NCBI GenBank assembly: GCA_017938885.1 | Contig: JAGBAS010000116.1 | Span: forward strand, 2,760 to 66,759 | From: Clostridia bacterium | Lineage (GTDB): Bacteria; Bacillota; Clostridia; Oscillospirales; CAG-272 | Direction: 5' to 3' | DNA: 64,000 nt | Shown here: piece after piece, positions 30,108 through 43,207 of the stretch | Layout of the letters: each line of letters starts with the position of its first letter | How positions within the stretch are numbered: position 1 is the first letter of the stretch | Notes under the pieces: model-generated | Seen by the model: only the letters and a program-made list of their open reading frames with translations | Database searches by the model: none | Told to the model about the DNA's origin: nothing | Made by a program: the position numbers and the translations under genes

Positions 30108-30167
30108 AACAAGAAAAAACAGATATCAAACAAGAAAAAATTAAAATCGTTTCGCAAAACGTTTCGC
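30108..30167. promoter_or_regulatory. Putative integrase arm-type sites between att and int
   Basis: Direct repeats aacaagaaaaaa (30108-30119, 30129-30140) and cgtttcgc (30148-30155, 30160-30167). Confidence 0.4.
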
Positions 30168-30172
30168 GGAAA

Positions 30173-31249
30173 CTATTTTGAGAGAAATTTGCAGAAATAT
30201 TCCTGCATCTGATCCTCCACAGATGTCTTTTTCGATGCCATGATATGGCCATAAACCTTATCGATCATGTTCTCGCTTTCGTGACCAACATAATCCGCAA
30301 TATACTTCTTCGGGATATTTAAAGATAGCATGACGGACACGGTGTAATGCCGCAAGTCGTGAAACCGGTAGTGCGGTAGATCATGCTTTTTCAGCAACCG
30401 GGGAAACTGGTTGCTGATGATATTCGGGCGCGGGGCTATGTAGTCGCCCGTGTCCGGGTGGGTCTCCTTATAAGTTTTCAGCGCGTCGCTGACGAGAGGG
30501 AACATGCGGATCGTTCGGGTGCCGGCGGCTGTTTTGGTGGTCTTTTCAACGAAATCGTTTTTATCGTTGATAACCACGGCGTGATTGATGGAGATCGTGT
30601 TCCGGACGAAATCGATGTTGCTCCATTTGATGGCGCAGATCTCCGAGCGTCGAAGGCCGCAACAGGCGGCCAGAAGGATAGGGATCTCCAGATCCGAACC
30701 GACTGAGATTTCAAACAACCGCTTTACATCCTCTTCTGTTGGCACAGTGATCTCGCTTTTTTTCTTTTGCGGGAGCGTAGTCGCAAAAGTAAAGTCCGGG
30801 CGATAGATCGAAAAAACAGACGAAAGAAAGCCGTGGAGGTTTCGCACGGTTTTCGGAGATCGGGTGATGGAGATCTTGTTGATTTCCACCTGGATCTGCG
30901 CCGGGGTGATTTTTTCAATGGGGGTGTTGCGCAAATCGTCGAAATGGTTCTTGGCGAAGCCTTGGTAAAGCCGGAGTGTTGTGGGAGATAACACGCCCGT
31001 TTTCATGGAGACAAATTCCGTCATAGCCTCACCGAGGGTGGGGCTTTTCTTTGCGCCCTCGATCTTTTCGCGCTTTTTGTCAGCCTTGAATTGCGCAACC
31101 TCCAAGAGCACAGCGTTATAATCATAGCTTGTGAACGACTCATACCGCCTCTTGCCGTCTGCGTCTGTGTGGCTGTAGACCTTGGCATGGTACGCCCCGC
31201 TTGGCAGCTGCTTGATGGCGGGCAACCTGGTGTTTCGTTTTTTCGGCAT
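30173..31249 (-). CDS. Tyrosine-type site-specific recombinase (phage integrase)
   Basis: N-terminal SAM-like/arm-binding region. Catalytic region ..AACCGLRRSEICAIKW.., HDLRHYTVSVMLSLNI, VGHESENMIDKVYGH (R..HxxR..Y pattern). Confidence 0.9.
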   Translation of the reverse strand: MPKKRNTRLPAIKQLPSGAYHAKVYSHTDADGKRRYESFTSYDYNAVLLEVAQFKADKKREKIEGAKKSPTLGEAMTEFVSMKTGVLSPTTLRLYQGFAKNHFDDLRNTPIEKITPAQIQVEINKISITRSPKTVRNLHGFLSSVFSIYRPDFTFATTLPQKKKSEITVPTEEDVKRLFEISVGSDLEIPILLAACCGLRRSEICAIKWSNIDFVRNTISINHAVVINDKNDFVEKTTKTAAGTRTIRMFPLVSDALKTYKETHPDTGDYIAPRPNIISNQFPRLLKKHDLPHYRFHDLRHYTVSVMLSLNIPKKYIADYVGHESENMIDKVYGHIMASKKTSVEDQMQEYFCKFLSK

Positions 31250-31252
31250 ACT

Positions 31253-31735
31253 CTACCTCCGTAAAAACCCAATGTCCCCGTGAAACACATCTACCACAAA
31301 GTAAGCCGTCAGAGCGATACAGCAGCAGCACAGCACCGCGCCGAGCACGAAAACCACCGCAGTCAGCTTGGCGTTGTTCTTTTCGTATCGGGCGTTACGG
31401 TCCCGTACCTCGGCCAACAGTTTTTCCATTTCGACGAGCTGGGCCTCCTTGACCTTGAGCACGGTATCGTAGGACTCGACCACGGTCTCCACCTCCTTGG
31501 GCGGCTCCTCGCCGGGGAGAGCCACGGAAAGGATCTTGTCTACGGATATGCCCAGGGCGATGGCGATGGTCAGGACGTTTTCAAAGCCGGGCCGCTTGCT
31601 CGCGCCGCTTAGGATGCGGGAGACGGTGGTCTCGGGGATGTGGGTCATCTCGGAAATATCCTCGTTGGACAGGTGCTTGGATTTTTTGATCTCTCGGATT
31701 CTCTCAATAAGAATTTGTGTGTAATCCATTTTCAT
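31253..31735 (-). CDS. XRE-family HTH protein with coiled coil and C-terminal transmembrane anchor (membrane-tethered repressor candidate)
   Basis: HTH LSNEDISEMTHIPETTVSRILSG; coiled coil KVKEAQLVEMEKLLAEVRD; TM LTAVVFVLGAVLCCCCIALTAYFVV. The stop lies 4 nt before the int start. The exact start is uncertain (31735, 31729 or TTG 31750). Confidence 0.7.
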   Translation of the reverse strand: MKMDYTQILIERIREIKKSKHLSNEDISEMTHIPETTVSRILSGASKRPGFENVLTIAIALGISVDKILSVALPGEEPPKEVETVVESYDTVLKVKEAQLVEMEKLLAEVRDRNARYEKNNAKLTAVVFVLGAVLCCCCIALTAYFVVDVFHGDIGFLRR

Positions 31736-31769
31736 CTCACTTTCTTGCAATTTTAGTATCGAAAAATTT

Positions 31770-31805
31770 AAAAAATCATTTTTTCACCCCTAAAAATCAT
31801 TTTTG
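31770..31805. promoter_or_regulatory. Two copies of a near-palindromic operator AAAAATCATTTTT, 21 bp apart
   Basis: Copies at 31770-31784 and 31791-31805, in the divergent region between the HTH-TM gene (-) and the 31866 promoter (+). Confidence 0.55.
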
Positions 31806-31865
31806 CATCCGCAAAAACGGTGCTCAAGGATGAAAATAAGATGCCCAAAAAAACCAGTTTCGCTC

Positions 31866-31894
31866 TTGAGACTTTTTTGGGTTTTTGCTATAAT
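31866..31894 (+). promoter_or_regulatory. Sigma-A-type promoter (TTGAGA-17-TATAAT)
   Basis: ttgaga at 31866-31871, a 17-nt spacer, and tataat at 31889-31894. Confidence 0.7.
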
Positions 31895-32239: not shown

Positions 32240-32320
32240 GGAACGATAGGAGGTATTTGTGGAACGATAGGAGGTATTTGCGGAACGATAGGAGGTATTT
32301 GCGGAACGATAGGGGGTTAT
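32240..32320. repeat. Four tandem 21-bp iterons ggaacgataggaggtatttg(t/c)
   Basis: Copies at 32240-32260, 32261-32281 and 32282-32302, with a degenerate copy at 32303-32320. They are intergenic or abut the stop of the SWIM gene. Confidence 0.9.
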
Positions 32321-33411
32321 TTTTTGGGAACAGGTGTTGTGCGTAGCTTATCAAAATATATTTTCATGGAATTCTCAAATAGATCTTTTCGAACCGACAG
32401 TACGCCAGCATGGTATGCCAAAAACAGCATATGCTTGCACGGCTGTTTTGTTTTTGCGTAATCGGTACAATTACAACGAGTCAAAGATGTATCGTGATAT
32501 GCGCCAGTTTCAGACCGAACTGTTGCGCTGATGTGAATACTACCCAAAAACTCAATATTTTCGATTTGAGAACGATGAAACCTTTTGTCTTTGACGCGCT
32601 CGTAAAAATCAAACATAGTAGGATAACGATAGAACCGTTCAGCACCTGTCTCCAACCGATTTAAAGCATCTAAATACAGGGCACTAATAGAGTCTTCATC
32701 TATAAGGTTAGTTTGAGTAGAAAGATTCACTGAATGTTTCTCGCCTGCTTTTTCAGCTTCTTTTTTATAAAAAGTAAGGTGATCGTCTAATCTTTTGATT
32801 GTAGCGTTTTTCTCGGCTATTTCCTTCTTGTATCTTTCTTCAGAGGATTTGTAAGAGCGAAGTTGAACATTCAGCCAGTCAATCTCGCTTGCGGATTTCA
32901 AATCTCGTAATTTGGATATTTCGTCTCGAAGTTCTTTTTCAGTTTGCTTTTGGATAGATAAACTTATTTCAAGGCTTTTTTTATCACTTTCTAAAAACCT
33001 GATCTTGGATTCGTAATCTGAAATGATCTTCCGAAGCGAATTGTTTTCCTGCTTGTATGTGCTGATTCTCGCATCAAGGCTTTTCTCTTGCTCTTTAAGA
33101 CGTTTTTCAAACTCTTGCAGTTCCAGTTGCTTTTTTTGTGCTTCTGAGGCTTTTTTGGTCGCATCTGACATTCTCATATTATAGGCAAGTTCTTTTTGTA
33201 TGCGATCACGAGCCTCATCGGAAAGATTTAAAGAGCCTTCAGAACTCTTTTTAATTTCATCTGTTCCTCGCAAAGGTAAACCAACCAACCTGCGATATTT
33301 GTTCTCCCACACCTGGGATTCTTTTTTGCAAGCGGATAAGTTGCAAGCCAAAACAATTATTGCAATGACGGCAGCAGGAGTTGCTAATCCAACGAGATAC
33401 AGAAATTCCAT
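32317..33411 (-). CDS. Membrane-anchored long coiled-coil protein with C-terminal SWIM zinc finger (unknown function; low-GC moron)
   Basis: N-terminal TM LVGLATPAAVIAIIVLAC. About 200 aa of heptad-rich K/E/L sequence follow. SWIM CxCxnCxH: CNCTDYAKTKQPCKH. A 60-nt sample (32701-32760) has 22/60 G+C against 43/60 at 33901-33960. Confidence 0.75.
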   Translation of the reverse strand: MEFLYLVGLATPAAVIAIIVLACNLSACKKESQVWENKYRRLVGLPLRGTDEIKKSSEGSLNLSDEARDRIQKELAYNMRMSDATKKASEAQKKQLELQEFEKRLKEQEKSLDARISTYKQENNSLRKIISDYESKIRFLESDKKSLEISLSIQKQTEKELRDEISKLRDLKSASEIDWLNVQLRSYKSSEERYKKEIAEKNATIKRLDDHLTFYKKEAEKAGEKHSVNLSTQTNLIDEDSISALYLDALNRLETGAERFYRYPTMFDFYERVKDKRFHRSQIENIEFLGSIHISATVRSETGAYHDTSLTRCNCTDYAKTKQPCKHMLFLAYHAGVLSVRKDLFENSMKIYFDKLRTTPVPKK

Positions 33412-33412
33412 A

Positions 33413-33757
33413 TCAGTCGCCCTTCTTCCTACTCAATATAAACTCCGCATATCTTTCCAGATCAGCCAGCTCCTCCGCGCTCATGCTGTCGATCAGAGAG
33501 AGAAGCTTCGGGTCTACCGTTACGGTAGGCTCTTTTTCTTTTTCAGCGAAGCGTTGAAGATCCAGCGGCACATTGCCGAGCAGGTAGTCCACGCTTACAC
33601 CGAAGTAGTCGGCGACTTTCTTCAAAGTGTTGTTTCGAGGGGTAGCCCCGTTTTTCCACTTTGTTGCCGTAGCGTTGGACAACCCCAACTCGGCGCACGC
33701 ACCGTTAGGCGAAATACCTTTAACGGTACAAAGAGACACGAATGTTTCCCAAAACAT
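33413..33757 (-). CDS. XRE/cI-like HTH repressor
   Basis: SD AAAGGAGG before the ATG at 33757. HTH ISPNGACAELGLSNATATKWKNGATP..LKKVADYFGVSVDYLLG. The stop lies 1 nt before the SWIM gene start. Confidence 0.8.
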   Translation of the reverse strand: MFWETFVSLCTVKGISPNGACAELGLSNATATKWKNGATPRNNTLKKVADYFGVSVDYLLGNVPLDLQRFAEKEKEPTVTVDPKLLSLIDSMSAEELADLERYAEFILSRKKGD

Positions 33758-33818
33758 AATAACCTCCTTTGTTTTGTAAAAACTAACTAATTCTAAATAT
33801 TTGCTTGTGTGCCATTTG

Positions 33819-33838
33819 CTGAAATTAGAAAAATTCAG
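33819..33838. promoter_or_regulatory. Imperfect 20-bp palindrome (candidate operator) between repressor gene and early promoter
   Basis: ctgaaattag|aaaaattcag has 7 of 10 symmetric positions. It sits 10 nt upstream of the -35 at 33848. Confidence 0.4.
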
Positions 33839-33847
33839 AAAAAGCAC

Positions 33848-33876
33848 TTGACAAGTTAGACAAAGTAAGATATAAT
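33848..33876 (+). promoter_or_regulatory. Consensus early promoter (TTGACA-17-TATAAT)
   Basis: ttgaca at 33848-33853, a 17-nt spacer, and tataat at 33871-33876. It is divergent from the cI-like gene. Confidence 0.8.
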
Positions 33877-33882
33877 GACAGT

Positions 33883-34010
33883 ACCACCTCCGCCGAGGGA
33901 TCAGCCGAAACGGTCAACCACCCCGTTCCGCCCTCCGGCGAGAAGGCGGCCCGCCGCTTGAAAAACGGGTTCGGGCCAGCCGATAATCAGCCGTCCGAGG
34001 CGGAGGTGGT
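33883..34010 (+). ncRNA. Candidate structured RNA/leader closed by a 12-bp perfect helix, starting at the predicted +1 of the early promoter
   Basis: accacctccgcc (33883-33894) pairs with ggcggaggtggt (33999-34010). Inside are AACGG..CCGUU and CCGCC/GGCGG-type helices and a duplicated AUCAGCCG. No credible ORF is present. The strand is not resolved, because the arms are perfectly complementary. Confidence 0.45.
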
Positions 34011-34036
34011 GCCAAGCTCCCCTGGCTTTCTTGTTC

Positions 34037-34082
34037 GAATTTTCCCCCCTGCTCGTGGTGCCATACGGGCGGGGGAAAATTC
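34037..34082 (+). other. 12-bp perfect hairpin downstream of the structured element
   Basis: gaattttccccc (34037-34048) pairs with gggggaaaattc (34071-34082) across a 22-nt loop. No U-tract follows. Confidence 0.5.
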
Positions 34083-34138
34083 GGGGCGGGGGCGTTAAAA
34101 AGTAACGGAATATAATATAAGGAAGGGAAGGTGAAGGA

Positions 34139-34465
34139 ATGGAAGATGTGAAGAGGGTCAACGTGGACGGTGAGGAATACGTGATCGTACCGATCTGCCC
34201 TATGACGGGATACCCGGAGCGGTATACCAAGGGAAGGACCGAGGAGGAGATCGCGGATTTTCGTGAAAGTATTCGAGATATACTGGGACGAAGTATCTAC
34301 GACTACGCTGAGCGGTGCGGAGCATTGAAGAGAACCGACACCGTTTATGAAAATGGGGATACGATCATCGAATGCGAGTTGCAGGTGCTTGTCAAGGCTC
34401 AGGCTTGGGAGGAAGCGGTCCACGAGGATCAAGAACGGAATCCTCCTTGTAATCGTGATACATGA
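34139..34465 (+). CDS. Hypothetical phage early protein (108 aa)
   Basis: Coding-like codon pattern (gaa gat gtg aag agg gtc aac gtg gac..) and a purine-rich SD region. Its 3' end overlaps the convergent 34392-34646 gene by 74 nt. Confidence 0.6.
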   Translation: MEDVKRVNVDGEEYVIVPICPMTGYPERYTKGRTEEEIADFRESIRDILGRSIYDYAERCGALKRTDTVYENGDTIIECELQVLVKAQAWEEAVHEDQERNPPCNRDT

Positions 34466-34646
34466 GGTATTCCATCAAGAACTTGCGGCATTGCTTGCAA
34501 GGCTCGGAGTAAACGTGAATGTCACAGCCTTGAGGATCCGGAACAGGGCCAAGAGGAGAATGGTACATATCAACGGGAGTTGATCGGATCGTTCGGAAAT
34601 TGTCGCGGCAACAGCGGATGCGGACGGAGATACGGTCTGCACTCAT
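34392..34646 (-). CDS. Hypothetical Cys-rich small protein (84 aa)
   Basis: Canonical SD GGAGG, 6 nt, then the ATG at 34646. MSADRISVRIRCCRDNF...GCDIHVYSEPCKQCRKFLMEYL. Confidence 0.6.
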   Translation of the reverse strand: MSADRISVRIRCCRDNFRTIRSTPVDMYHSPLGPVPDPQGCDIHVYSEPCKQCRKFLMEYLMYHDYKEDSVLDPRGPLPPKPEP

Positions 34647-34648
34647 AG

Positions 34649-34683
34649 GAAACCTCCAACAAGAAAAATAGGGAAAGGACGGT
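34649..34683. repeat. 35-bp repeat (copy 1) forming a bidirectional RBS spacer between head-to-head starts
   Basis: gaaacctccaacaagaaaaatagggaaaggacggt is identical to 35070-35104. It carries GGAGG for the minus gene and GAAAGGA for the plus gene. Confidence 0.9.
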
Positions 34684-34689
34684 GAAGGA

Positions 34690-34863
34690 ATGGAAGATGT
34701 GAAGAGGGTTGTAAACAAGAGAAACGAGGAGTTCCGCAGATCGTTTCTAAAGGATGTTTATCGACCGATCCTTACGAATCTGCGATGTCAGCCAGACCAT
34801 GGTACAGCCTTTTCAGCTTGGCTGGATCGTAGGCTGTTGGATAGGAGTTTACGGCATATGTGA
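34690..34863 (+). CDS. Possible small ORF (57 aa) sharing its first 7 codons with the 34139 gene
   Basis: The 29-bp repeat ggtgaaggaATGgaagatgtgaagagggt (34130-34158 = 34681-34709) supplies the SD and MEDVKRV. The ORF is below the track threshold. It overlaps the convergent 34772-35068 gene by 92 nt. Confidence 0.3.
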   Translation: MEDVKRVVNKRNEEFRRSFLKDVYRPILTNLRCQPDHGTAFSAWLDRRLLDRSLRHM

Positions 34864-35068
34864 TTGCCATACACAAGACCATGGCTTCGATTTGCGTGAG
34901 CGGTTGATTCAGGAGGACGGAAGAGATCTTCGTGAGGGCCACAGAGATATATTCTTTTTGAGAATCGGTGTCCATGATCGGAAAGGGGGAGGGAACATTA
35001 AATCCGTCATGGGAATACAGCGAACAACAGTGCCGAATGAATTCAATGTCGTCACGAGTAAATTGCAT
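34772..35068 (-). CDS. Hypothetical phage protein (98 aa)
   Basis: SD GGAGG, 5 nt, then the ATG at 35068 (MQFTRDDIEFIRHCCSLYSHDGF..). The ORF track starts 5 codons upstream. Confidence 0.6.
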   Translation of the reverse strand: MQFTRDDIEFIRHCCSLYSHDGFNVPSPFPIMDTDSQKEYISVALTKISSVLLNQPLTQIEAMVLCMAITYAVNSYPTAYDPAKLKRLYHGLADIADS

Positions 35069-35069
35069 A

Positions 35070-35104
35070 GAAACCTCCAACAAGAAAAATAGGGAAAGGA
35101 CGGT
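35070..35104. repeat. 35-bp repeat (copy 2), bidirectional RBS spacer
   Basis: Identical to 34649-34683. It lies between the minus start at 35068 and the plus start at 35111. Confidence 0.9.
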
Positions 35105-35110
35105 ACAAGA

Positions 35111-35443
35111 ATGAAAGGTTTATCAAACGAGCACGTAGCCATGCTGAACAAGGAAGACCTCATCCGCATCAAGGGGACGCTGAAGCGGGTGTACGAAAAG
35201 CAGGGAAAGGCGGAGCAGCTGAAGGAGCTGTATCCCTGCCCCTACCGCAAGCTGGAAGCACTCATCAAGGAGTGGGACGCAGAGACCGAGATGGCGTCGC
35301 TGATGGCTCTCTGCTTTACAATCGCATTCAGAAAGACCGAGGATTATACCTTGGCAGACACGATGGGAAACGCGCTGATCGGCATCGTCAAGAAGGCCAT
35401 CAAGGAGATCGACGAGTTTGAGTTCGGTTGCCGGTGCCATTAA
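35111..35443 (+). CDS. Hypothetical phage early protein (110 aa)
   Basis: SD GAAAGGA upstream. The protein looks plausible (MKGLSNEHVAMLNKEDLIRIKGTLKRVYEKQG..). The opposite-strand ORF looks like an antisense shadow. Confidence 0.65.
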   Translation: MKGLSNEHVAMLNKEDLIRIKGTLKRVYEKQGKAEQLKELYPCPYRKLEALIKEWDAETEMASLMALCFTIAFRKTEDYTLADTMGNALIGIVKKAIKEIDEFEFGCRCH

Positions 35444-35507
35444 AGAATCTGTGAAAAAATAACGGCACACAAGAAACAAATAGCCCGCTGGAACCGGGCG
35501 ATATACC

Positions 35508-35536
35508 ATTATACCACAAAAACCTTGATGTGTCAA
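35508..35536 (-). promoter_or_regulatory. Consensus minus-strand promoter (TTGACA-17-TATAAT) facing the early promoter
   Basis: The minus strand reads cccTTGACAcatcaaggtttttgtggTATAATggtatat. The -35 is at 35536-35531 and the -10 at 35513-35508. It is followed by a 5-bp GC hairpin (GCCCG..CGGGC) and a U-rich tract. Confidence 0.7.
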
Positions 35537-35562
35537 GGGATTTTCAAAAAAGGAGAAAGCAA

Positions 35563-35964
35563 ATGCAAAGAAACTACTTCAAGGAGCGGGTGGAGCTCCG
35601 CATGGCCGCGTTGGGCATCGTCCAGAAGCAGCTGGCCGAGAAGCTCGATAAGCCCATCCAGAGACTCACCGAGGCCCTGCGCGGGGACAACACCGCCGCC
35701 GCACAGAGCCTGCGGGTCAAGATCGACCTGGCCCTCACGGGGATGTGCGACGAGAAGCGCGAGCAGATGGCCGCAGAAATCGAGAGGGTCAGAGCGGTGC
35801 AGTGCCCCCACCTCACGGGCAAGCTCTCGGTGATCCTCCCCGAGGACACCATCTACATCGTCACCGAGGACGGGATCCCCGTGGGCTCCTGGAACCCCGT
35901 GACCAACACCTACAGCGAGCTGGACGCGGTGCTGATGCCCGTGGTGGGGAGGAGGATAAAATGA
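35563..35964 (+). CDS. HTH (Cro/XRE-like) early regulator with C-terminal extension
   Basis: SD AAGGAG before the ATG at 35563. RMAALGIVQKQLAEKLDKPIQRLTEALRG. Confidence 0.65.
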   Translation: MQRNYFKERVELRMAALGIVQKQLAEKLDKPIQRLTEALRGDNTAAAQSLRVKIDLALTGMCDEKREQMAAEIERVRAVQCPHLTGKLSVILPEDTIYIVTEDGIPVGSWNPVTNTYSELDAVLMPVVGRRIK

Positions 35965-42496: not shown

Positions 42497-42626
42497 TAGA
42501 AAGCGCGTATTCAAGAATCAATGCTTCGTCGGATTCGGTAAGTAAGCCACTCGCTTTGGCTGCGTATAGTTTTTCTTTCAAACGGAGGGCAATTTCGGAT
42601 GCTTCGGATATAGTATTGCTTTTCAT
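42474..42626 (-). CDS. Small protein (50 aa), paralog of the 31942-32140 product
   Basis: Minus-strand ATGA overlap with the stop of the upstream AP2-like gene. MKSNTISEASEIALRLKEKLYAAKASGLLTESDEALILEYALSIIRRRKQ. The ORF is below the track threshold. Confidence 0.55.
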   Translation of the reverse strand: MKSNTISEASEIALRLKEKLYAAKASGLLTESDEALILEYALSIIRRRKQ

Positions 42627-43141
42627 TTCTGACTCCTACTATTAGATTTTCGTGTGTTGTTCATTTGTGTATCCCACGTTGCCCAACGACAGTTTTCGGG
42701 GCAATAATTGCCATTGGGATCGATACGGTCTAAAGTGCATTGATTACGAGGAGCTTTATCATCATAACCGTGCGAATAAGCCCAATCAGCAAAGTTTTGA
42801 AAAGATTGTCGCCATTCATCACAAACGGTGATGCCACGGCCACCATAATCATTGTAATTGATGGCATTAGGATTAGAACAACGGGTGATCATGCCGTGCC
42901 AAACTCCGTATAGTCTTGATTGTGTTGCGTTGTGTGTTTTACGACTGTCATAATATTCTTTAAGTAAACAGCCGCAACTACTGATATGTCCAGAAGTAAG
43001 ATTAGATATTCGAACTTCAGCGTAATTGCCGCAATCACATTTGCAACGCCAAACAGATTGATGGCCGCTAAGTCTGTCCAACTTATAAAGTGCTGTAAGA
43101 CGACCAAAACGTTGTCCAGTAATATCTTTTATTCTTGCCAT
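42623..43141 (-). CDS. Phage-type DNA-binding protein (Cys-cluster N-domain plus YGGRGI/AP2-like C-domain)
   Basis: GQRFGRLTALY..WRCKCDCGN..SGHISSCGC, then SRLYGVWHGMITRCSNPNAINYNDYGGRGITVCDEW and DRIDPNGNYCPENCRWAT. It is AT-rich (21/60 G+C at 42901-42960). Confidence 0.65.
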   Translation of the reverse strand: MARIKDITGQRFGRLTALYKLDRLSGHQSVWRCKCDCGNYAEVRISNLTSGHISSCGCLLKEYYDSRKTHNATQSRLYGVWHGMITRCSNPNAINYNDYGGRGITVCDEWRQSFQNFADWAYSHGYDDKAPRNQCTLDRIDPNGNYCPENCRWATWDTQMNNTRKSNSRSQK

Positions 43142-43178
43142 AGTGCCTCCTTATGTTGATGATTATCGTTACAATGAT

Positions 43179-43207
43179 ATTATAGCACTAAATATTAGTG
43201 AAGTCAA
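43179..43207 (-). promoter_or_regulatory. Consensus promoter (TTGACT-17-TATAAT) for the AP2-like gene
   Basis: The minus strand reads atATTGACTtcactaatatttagtgcTATAATatc. Confidence 0.7.

Follow-up and report, generated by a model that had tools for sequence, protein, structure and literature searches.

Why should a temperate phage keep two consensus promoters pointed straight at each other, with genes of both orientations enclosed between them? The question is raised by positions 33848-35536 of a 64,000-nucleotide (nt) stretch of contig JAGBAS010000116.1 from a Clostridia bacterium (assembly GCA_017938885.1), hereafter the window, which contains an integrated prophage recognizable by its integrase (30173-31249, minus strand), terminase large subunit, P22-like portal and capsid protein and adjoining an ispH-S1 fusion gene. 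Here a rightward, predicted lytic promoter, PR (33848-33876, plus strand; TTGACA-17-TATAAT, 12 of 12 consensus positions), faces a leftward promoter, P(-) (35508-35536, minus strand; TTGACA-17-TGgTATAAT, 12/12 plus TG). To the left of PR lies the gene of a putative immunity repressor (33413-33757, minus strand), a protein of 114 amino acids (aa) of the XRE/HTH_3 type (Pfam HTH_3, 1.7e-7; PHROG transcriptional regulator/repressor families), and to the right of P(-) lies orf133 (35563-35964, plus strand), the first conserved early gene, HTH_3-like and in the Cro/Apl position; the region is thus the immunity and early-control (lysis-lysogeny) region of a temperate phage of a gut Clostridia host. 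The answer that we favour, with a probability of roughly 0.55, is that a recombination-shuffled array of gene cassettes sits inside a conserved convergent-promoter switch, in which PR would read the plus-strand and early genes across P(-), while P(-) would read the minus-strand genes antisense.

The two promoters are the sole perfect TTGACA-N17-TATAAT matches in 64 kb, where chance would yield 0.04 even with one mismatch allowed, and the claim with which a previous, sequence-only reading of this DNA began, that facing consensus promoters enclose 33848-35536, holds in full: both match at 12/12, lie on opposite strands and point at each other. Relatives were collected as fetched contigs encoding two of the enclosed genes, orf98 and orf110, or homologues of orf133, and by two pattern scans, which together gave 12 distinct versions of the region (L numbers below); the promoter scan covered 10 loci, and the comparison of P(-) and the hairpin that follows it covered 12 variants. 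A 12/12 rightward promoter is found in 10/10 loci, its 17-nt spacer, which holds putative operators, differing with the type of repressor, and the repressor gene and operator-like repeats inside PR co-vary among the relatives. L050 has two PR-like copies, the 12/12 copy being the upstream one and the slot-side copy matching at 10/12 with TG; in that locus (2330-2760) the duplicated PR-like promoter and a short leader flank a 77-aa minus-strand gene. P(-) scores 10-12/12 with TG in 10/10 loci. It lies 25-30 nt upstream of the orf133 start in all 12 variants and keeps a perfect -35 element, the 17-nt spacing and a TRTG/extended -10, which reads TATAAT, TAAAAT, TATATT or TAATAT, around a spacer of varying sequence; a palindrome, CCTTGA-N4-TCAAGG, overlaps its -35 element. 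The face-to-face pair is accordingly a conserved backbone in 12/12 variants, with outer edges 372-1689 nt apart, and persists even where it encloses a leader alone. The order common to the relatives is minus-strand repressor, PR, leader (11/12), variable slot, P(-) with its hairpin, and orf133.

Might such promoter-like sequences and repeats have arisen by chance or in assembly, and be without function? Nothing speaks for this view but the general point that a consensus match does not prove activity; against it stand the chance expectation just given, the conservation in 12 diverged loci with varying spacers, and the presence of the three-unit arrangement at 100% identity in contigs of at least four independent metagenome assemblies. 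Since the three-unit sequence recurs in independent assemblies, it is not an assembly artefact, and we assign the whole explanation a negligible probability; judged by the comparative data, it is effectively refuted.

What fills the slot? Five open reading frames (ORFs) alternate in direction, at the coordinates that the sequence-only reading had listed: orf108 (34139-34465, plus) and orf84 (34392-34646, minus) form unit A, a 57-aa ORF (34690-34863, plus) and orf98 (34772-35068, minus) form unit B, and orf110 (35111-35443, plus) stands alone as unit C. The convergent partners overlap at their 3' ends by exactly 74 nt (34392-34465) and 92 nt (34772-34863), and the head-to-head neighbours are separated by two short linkers. 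Linker 1 (34647-34689, 43 nt) carries a ribosome-binding site (RBS) in each direction, holds the first copy of an exact 35-nt repeat (34649-34683 = 35070-35104) and overlaps the second copy of an exact 29-nt repeat (34130-34158 = 34681-34709), both repeats having been reported before. Linker 2 (35069-35110), which also stands before orf110 in L001/L006, holds the other 35-nt copy; the spacer had been described as 43 base pairs (bp) long in both places, which is correct for the first, but the second measures 42 nt. As had been claimed, neither leaves room for a promoter, the two RBSs being all that they hold. A third, degenerate linker copy ('copy 0', repeat family D1; 69% identity) lies at the end of the leader (34098-34145). 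On the minus strand, the linker resembles the 5' untranslated region (UTR) of the P(-) transcript (CCCTATTTTTCTTGTTGGAGG versus GGGCTATTTGTTTCTTGTGTGCC) and, on the plus strand, the RBS end of the leader, so that the linkers (35-48 nt) appear, from this likeness, to have been copied from the two expression signals at the borders of the slot. They are direct repeats without an internal inverted repeat. An integron array was considered and rejected: there is no attC (the linkers being direct repeats) and no IntI, attI or single Pc, the sole integrase, that of the phage, lies 2.6 kb to the left, and the cassettes lie in both orientations between two promoters. The window has 10 copies of an octamer, TTTCTTGT, where 1.5 would be expected, with sites at 30109-30137 (-), 34027 (+) and 34659, 35080, 35469, 36986 and 37205 (-); four copies take 5' UTR-like positions in this region, on the sense strand, and two lie just past the integrase gene, close to where the prophage ends. 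A protein or the ribosome may bind this motif.

The relatives differ in the number and kind of units that they carry. None is present in L044 and L048, where only the leader separates promoters 372 and 459 nt apart; L051-53 carry a single unit, an orf110-like plus-strand gene (766 nt in L051), and L047, L049, L050 and L054 a single convergent plus/minus pair (909-1239 nt in L047, L049 and L054); two units are found in L008/9, L013/15 and L001/6 (1149-1365 nt in L013 and L001), and all three, A, B and C, in the window (1689 nt). Unit A is absent from L013/L015, and unit B from L008/L009; the missing stretch is bounded exactly by the two copies of the 29-nt repeat in the first case and by those of the 35-nt repeat in the second, and one hybrid repeat remains at the joint each time. 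Exact loss at repeats with a hybrid repeat left behind is the signature of homologous recombination at the linkers. The comparison across related phages that the sequence-only reading had proposed as a check thus found the repeats there, with cassettes gained and lost at them, and its description of a recombination-shuffled cassette array is upheld by relatives that lose units at repeat junctions and by others that carry different units. A separate observation comes from L016, a metagenome contig of 544 nt (1-544, reverse complement), in which unit B is fused in frame to an ORF with a SpoIID domain (Pfam 6e-11), the join falling exactly at the start of the 29-nt repeat; this is either a chimeric assembly or a cassette in another genomic context.

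Are the enclosed ORFs genes at all? Four of the five are. Homologues of orf108 (the 'A1' family) share 41-74% identity with it, the family comprising six clusters among 1.8e9 representatives, and in comparison with L049/L050/L054 synonymous changes are enriched outside the overlap with orf84; weak matches of long proteins to orf108 (P0050-53) were set aside as repeat or coiled-coil noise. Its partner orf84 (the 'B1' family), with an RBS (GGAGG) 6 nt before its ATG, belongs to a small Cys-rich family with a conserved C-terminal tail, and here, too, synonymous changes are enriched. When either is compared with relatives of 50-65% identity, roughly one changed codon in two is synonymous, and in the 74-nt overlap it is the frame of orf84 that is constrained. 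Conservation of the minus ORFs as coding sequence, on which the earlier proposal had been made to depend, is therefore found for orf84. The AlphaFold2 (AF2) model of orf84, built from a four-sequence alignment, is unusable (predicted local distance difference test score, pLDDT, 41). In orf110, all substitutions are synonymous (7/7 against L001 and 4/4 against L008), and nearly all are non-synonymous in the antisense frame. By these patterns orf108, orf84 and orf110 are evolving as coding sequence. For orf98, which has an RBS (GGAGG) 5 nt before its ATG and is called as a gene in all contigs, no diverged homologue was available; its single-sequence AF2 model is a four-helix protein (pLDDT 82, predicted TM score, pTM, 0.72), for which Foldseek searches of the PDB and BFVD gave only matches with E > 0.4. 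The 57-aa ORF stands apart. The 29-nt repeat does give it the same first seven codons as orf108, as had been pointed out, but it is probably not a gene: it is never called as one in any contig, and the variation available amounts to one substitution. It is probably a remnant, which would be explained most simply as a side effect of the recombination event that introduced orf98. Searches of Pfam, PHROG and PADLOC with orf108, orf84, orf57, orf98 and orf110 gave no match save one below threshold, that of the PCxxC motif of orf84 to a deaminase zinc site.

A different view of the slot is that the convergent, 3'-overlapping pairs are functional two-gene modules, such as a lysogenic exclusion or defence gene with a lytic antidote, or a toxin-antitoxin-like pair, in which the overlap provides mutual antisense control. 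Both partners are indeed under purifying selection, and they occur as pairs, A1 being joined by B1 in the window, L008, L049, L050 and L054, and A2 by B2 in L001 and L047. Such co-inheritance is expected anyway, however, when the sole recombination linkers lie at the 5' ends of the genes; moreover, L046 pairs an A2-type gene with an unrelated 98-aa minus-strand gene, orf98 and orf110 occur without partners, the database searches just described returned no defence or other family, and neither protein resembles a type I toxin. The txpA/RatA type of toxin-antitoxin system was likewise rejected, because both partners here are conserved, soluble-looking proteins of 84-119 aa instead of a small hydrophobic toxin and a non-coding RNA. 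Self-contained two-gene modules are, on this evidence, quite unlikely.

How, then, would genes without promoters of their own be expressed? The interior of the array is free of promoter- and terminator-like sites except for a weak 9/12 site within orf110. No plus-strand terminator-like site was found in 33848-35563, and no plus-strand promoter of at least 9/12 upstream of orf133 in the window or in most relatives (sites in L047, at 9/12, and L049, at 8/12, overlap the start codon). With no other promoter and no plus-strand terminator between, the plus-strand genes and the early operon would depend on transcription from PR across P(-). The minus-strand genes have an RBS and no room for a promoter, which makes P(-) their likeliest source, the weak leftward site within orf110 (35370-35343) being the alternative. 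In L047, L049, L050 and L054, an orf84-family gene with its RBS directly follows P(-), which argues that P(-) is its promoter there. On the minus strand, just three terminator-like sites occur in the interval, namely the hairpin of P(-), the palindrome at its -35 element and a weak one at the closing stem of the leader, P1.

The comparison establishes the layout and its conservation, the gain and loss of cassettes at the repeats, the coding status of four ORFs and the plus-strand RNA structure described below; promoter activity, interference between the promoters, the regulation of P(-) and the functions of the genes are inferred, and a scheme can be drawn as follows. In a lysogen, the bound repressor would keep PR silent, and P(-), attenuated by its hairpin, would express orf98 and orf84 and at the same time oppose leaky lytic transcription. 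Upon derepression, PR would override P(-) by occlusion, collision and duplex formation, and induction would move expression from the minus set to the plus set (orf108 and orf110) and then to orf133 and replication. Homologous recombination at the linkers would add, remove or swap the units of the slot, and the orientation of a slot gene would sort accessory genes into lysogenic or lytic expression. A transcriptional-interference or antisense switch was what the sequence-only reading had proposed; the geometry on which it drew is conserved, and interference itself would follow from that geometry.

Several observations weigh against this scheme. To begin with, P(-) is retained without any unit (L044 and L048) and without any minus-strand ORF (L051-53). 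Being equally conserved where there is no minus-strand ORF, it should have a role of its own in the switch and, by this comparison, expressing minus-strand genes cannot be its sole role. Two equally strong opposed promoters, moreover, would interfere symmetrically, and no repressor operator has been identified at P(-). The site within orf110 (35343-35370, minus; TTTCCC-16-TATAAT), a possible internal leftward promoter on weak evidence, matches at 9/12 in the window and L001 and at 10/12 in L013, and is degraded in L051, which has no minus-strand ORF; at 9-10/12 it could serve orf98 and orf84 in place of P(-). Finally, the P(-) transcript begins with a hairpin, GCCCGG-UUCCA-GCGGGC (35483-35499, minus), flagged as terminator-like and followed by UAUUUGUUUCUUGUGU, and this conserved hairpin and U-rich tail, 8-20 nt past the -10 element, could stop most leftward transcripts. 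If transcription did stop there, P(-) would serve orf98 and orf84, 430-850 nt further left, poorly. A second hairpin and U-tract follows in L001/L008/L013/L051. In L048 (3290-3320, plus), the P(-) hairpin is succeeded by U6 on the plus strand as well, which makes it a bidirectional terminator-like element before orf133; judged by this sequence, read-through from PR is not obviously free in every relative, and such an element would fit an antitermination role for the leader.

In a rival explanation, P(-) mainly yields a short, terminated RNA of about 30-75 nt, this RNA or the seated polymerase acts as a brake or insulator on PR transcripts entering orf133, and the minus-strand ORFs are expressed by rare read-through or from internal promoters. 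That a weak hairpin and U-tract directly follow the minus promoter had been seen at the outset; they prove to be present in every variant (4-5 bp, GC, then UAUUUNUAUC, in 12/12) with compensatory versions (CCCGA/UCGGG in L049 and CCGU/ACGG in L044), and the suggestion that P(-) makes only a short RNA may be right. The rival can thus call on a hairpin with a UAUUUNU tail preserved by compensatory changes in 12/12 variants, on the second hairpin and U-tract in several of them, on the retention of P(-) in L044, L048 and L051-53, all without a minus-strand ORF, and on the TTTCCC/TTGCCC-16-TATAAT site inside orf110 as a source of leftward transcripts. On the other hand, the hairpin has just 4-5 bp, with a folding free energy of about -6 to -8.6 kcal/mol in most variants and -2.0 for the 4-bp version of L044, and the U-tract after it is broken; read-through must occur in L047/49/50/54, where an orf84-family ORF and its RBS come 50-60 nt past the hairpin; and the short RNA would leave the RBS of orf133 uncovered. 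We consider this explanation possible, though improbable on balance. The hairpin and U-rich tail look, from sequence and fold, like an attenuator, and the hairpin itself could be an attenuator, a terminator or a 5' stabiliser.

The nearest precedents for such an element are sar of P22 immI and oop/paQ of lambda, which share with P(-) a promoter firing backward inside a rightward operon and followed at once by a hairpin and U-tail. The likeness stops at the target, as sar covers the ant RBS, whereas a short RNA here would end about 50 nt upstream of the orf133 RBS, and, unlike with sar and oop, a real ORF follows the hairpin in several relatives.

Could P(-) instead be the promoter of the repressor itself? 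In coliphage 186, the face-to-face promoters pR and pL reportedly act on each other by transcriptional interference (Callen et al. 2004, cited in PMC11318856), and their start sites are 62 bp apart. The likeness to 186 and to P2, with its promoters Pe and Pc, lies, at the level of sequence, in the convergent lytic and opposing promoters with the repressor gene beyond the lytic one, and in the small, putative helix-turn-helix (HTH) gene, in the position of Apl or Cox, past the opposing promoter, where lytic transcription alone would reach it. Taken literally, this analogy would make P(-) the lysogenic promoter of a 186/P2-type switch, its transcript running through the slot, antisense to the leader, and across PR into the repressor gene, with control by convergent competition. 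The geometry is as in 186 (repressor gene, PR rightward, P(-) leftward, small HTH gene); a search of the stretch from PR to the RBS of the repressor gene gave no convincing separate promoter in any variant, the best sites matching at 8/12 and those at 9/12 overlapping the start codon; past the P(-) hairpin, no strong minus-strand terminator precedes the repressor gene; and the repressor start is as close as about 450-550 nt to P(-) in L044 and L048. Yet in other variants the transcript would have to cover up to 1.75 kb, across two translated minus-strand genes and the very stable antisense of the leader, and the terminator-like hairpins after P(-) would stand in its way from the start. In addition, P(-) varies with orf133 and not with the type of repressor, and weak, activator-dependent promoters of the PRM type are normally invisible to consensus scans. 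We hold this interpretation to be unlikely, and the two just weighed, the two-gene modules and the favoured scheme of an orientation-sorting cassette array are not mutually exclusive. A candidate for an operator shared by the two promoters, CTTGTGTGCC (33804 on the plus strand and 35464 on the minus strand), was discarded, since the P(-) copy is kept with other repressor types and absent with a similar repressor.

Whichever role P(-) plays, the 186 analogy offered by the sequence-only reading fits better than its other one, pCF10 prgQ/prgX, but it fails on spacing: the short-spacing feature of 186 is missing where the promoters lie 372-1689 nt, not about 62 bp, apart. Further differences are that both promoters are of consensus strength here, that the space between them holds a structured leader RNA as well as translated genes pointing either way, and that the opposing promoter is followed by an attenuator-like hairpin. 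With pCF10 (and its Anti-Q RNA), the topology is shared, i.e. convergent promoters, overlapping transcripts and a short structured RNA on one side, with interference and antisense effects both plausible, but nothing else, as that system is a plasmid conjugation switch with an RRNPP-type PrgX and peptide signals and the regulators here are short XRE HTH proteins (114-165 aa) with no other domain detected. Seen as cargo, the slot units recall the morons of lambdoid and other temperate phages, small genes present or absent between backbone genes and exchanged at short conserved boundary sequences; they differ in having no promoter or terminator of their own, in lying in both orientations, in sharing a bidirectional RBS linker and in being served, it seems, by two promoters outside.

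A component that the sequence-only reading had missed is a GC-rich, structured plus-strand leader of about 250 nt (33881-34125) that starts at the predicted 5' end of the PR transcript. Its first domain (33881-34013, plus; fold z = -3.1) is a three-way junction closed by P1, a stem of 12-14 bp formed by ACCACCUCCGCC/GGCGGAGGUGGU from the predicted transcript 5' end; the junction CCGGCGAGAAGGC...GCCGAUAAUCAGCCGUC is conserved and the arms P2 and P3 are variable. RNAalifold finds 27 pairs in this domain, nine of them with compensatory changes, and pairing reaches 93% against 31-58% in slid controls, while none of 500 shuffles attains the observed covariation, although controls of this kind are not ideal where sequences are related and mosaic, and the number of variants is small. 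The P1 stem forms in 11/11 variants, with a compensatory change from U-A to C-G (in another alignment, the paired loss of that base pair), and P3 is closed by at least eight different helix sequences; in other words, the junction nucleotides are invariant and the arms have been swapped for unrelated sequences that can still pair. Hairpin 2 (34033-34085, plus) is long and GC-rich, its pairs being 86-98% paired, with no U-tract after it, and hairpin 3 (34093-34107, plus) has covariation in 3/4 pairs; the structure of hairpins 2-3 as a whole is 95.5% paired. Hairpin 3 is followed, as far as 34138, by the A/U-rich and purine-rich region for initiating translation of the first plus ORF. The leader is present in 11/12 variants; L050 has a different, shorter one with hairpin 3 only and without domains 1 and 2, which, on this sequence evidence, shows that the leader is not universal in the group.

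To which strand does the structure belong? Raw minimum free energy proved a misleading guide, as by this measure the minus strand does as well as the plus strand or better. In hairpin 2, five near-invariant U-G/G-U pairs form on the plus strand only, a further U-G pair occurs in P1 of L048/L049, and the shuffle z-scores are better for the plus strand in 10/12 variants; the G-U pairs and these scores together place the structure on the plus strand. What the leader does is a more speculative matter. Since its hairpins all lack a following U-tract, it is not a riboswitch of the simple terminator type. ARAGORN detects no tRNA or tmRNA, and a tRNA-like ...GCCA end and a reading of P1 as an anti-Shine-Dalgarno/Shine-Dalgarno pairing were both given up, each being lost in other variants. 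Rfam 15 yields no match at gathering threshold in the window and, in a permissive search of 33700-35700, only chance-level matches with E > 7; by its conservation and fold, the leader may represent a new RNA class. The put RNA of HK022 offers a parallel, likewise a conserved structured RNA at or near the 5' end of an early transcript, but put consists of two stem-loops in about 70 nt, whereas a three-way junction and two hairpins occupy about 250 nt here, without an Rfam family. We entertain, as a doubtful and tentative proposal, that the leader is a new cis-acting RNA (a ligand or protein sensor, a put-like antiterminator, or an antisense target of P(-)) which would form, together with P(-), an RNA-level element of the lysis-lysogeny decision, the slot being a bidirectional platform that sorts genes by orientation. 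Within the leader, four G-runs (GGGCGGGGGAAAATTCGGGGCGGGGG; 34066-34098, plus), on the 3' side of hairpin 2 and beyond, make up a canonical G-quadruplex-type motif. They would compete with hairpin 2, and alternative folds are possible, since either G-rich copy is a potential partner for the C-rich 5' strand.

Although orf133 has 40 homologues, some matching PF01381 (HTH_3), and a weak PHROG 'transcriptional repressor' match (0.0024), the window protein itself has no Pfam match; the sequence at P(-) varies with this gene, not with repressor type, and downstream of it the early operon continues with PcfJ, DUF3102 and others. After the repressor gene, and on the same strand, comes a variable gene, a SWIM/coiled-coil gene in the window (32317-33411, minus; weak LmuB-like PADLOC matches) and a zinc-ribbon or peptidase M78 gene in relatives, which suggests an exclusion or defence slot beside the repressor. 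A second regulatory module lies further left (31253-31894), comprising a 165-aa HTH_3/HTH_19 gene (minus) beside the integrase, a small plus ORF and a near-consensus plus promoter (31866-31894; TTGAGA-17-TATAAT). Far to the right, inside the rightward phage operon, a near-consensus leftward promoter (43179-43207, minus; TTGACT-17-TGcTATAAT) stands upstream of a 172-aa minus ORF (42623-43141) and, in relatives, beside an HTH_26 gene; 42623-43207 may be a second backward-reading unit of the same kind.

The phage group to which all this belongs was not found in INPHARED or IMG/VR: among 50,697 phage records, neither the region (by BLAST) nor orf98 (by tblastn) had a match, and exact-pattern and protein scans of IMG/VR were likewise empty, as was a concatenated query of the five ORFs. 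The sole relative in a named genome is in Candidatus Enterenecus sp., of the class Clostridia. A scan of GTDB genomes for the P1-stem pattern returned 28 loci, eight of which were inspected and gave one true relative (L044) and seven chance GC-rich matches, the 20 uninspected loci being mostly from unrelated high-GC taxa.

What might such an arrangement mean for these phages? To our knowledge, regulation has hardly been studied in the temperate phages of gut Clostridia, hosts that are abundant but poorly cultured. In 2024, a survey of prophages of Clostridium clostridioforme had already predicted that some Clostridia prophages carry convergent promoters with interference of the 186 kind (PMC11318856), so the general idea is not new for this group. 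Three things do appear to be new, namely the structured leader, a conserved pair of consensus promoters that brackets a cassette slot whose linkers carry an RBS in each direction, and the likely part of gene orientation in determining the expression programme. If the favoured scheme is true, this would be a natural 186-like convergent switch stretched to hold translated genes, in which orientation alone would set whether an accessory gene joins the lysogenic or the lytic programme, and bidirectional RBS linkers would let phages trade genes without promoters or terminators. The natural variants, with zero to three units and spacings of 372-1689 nt, would be useful for following the effects of distance and of intervening genes on transcriptional interference, and the start of the lytic transcript would offer a candidate new structured RNA.

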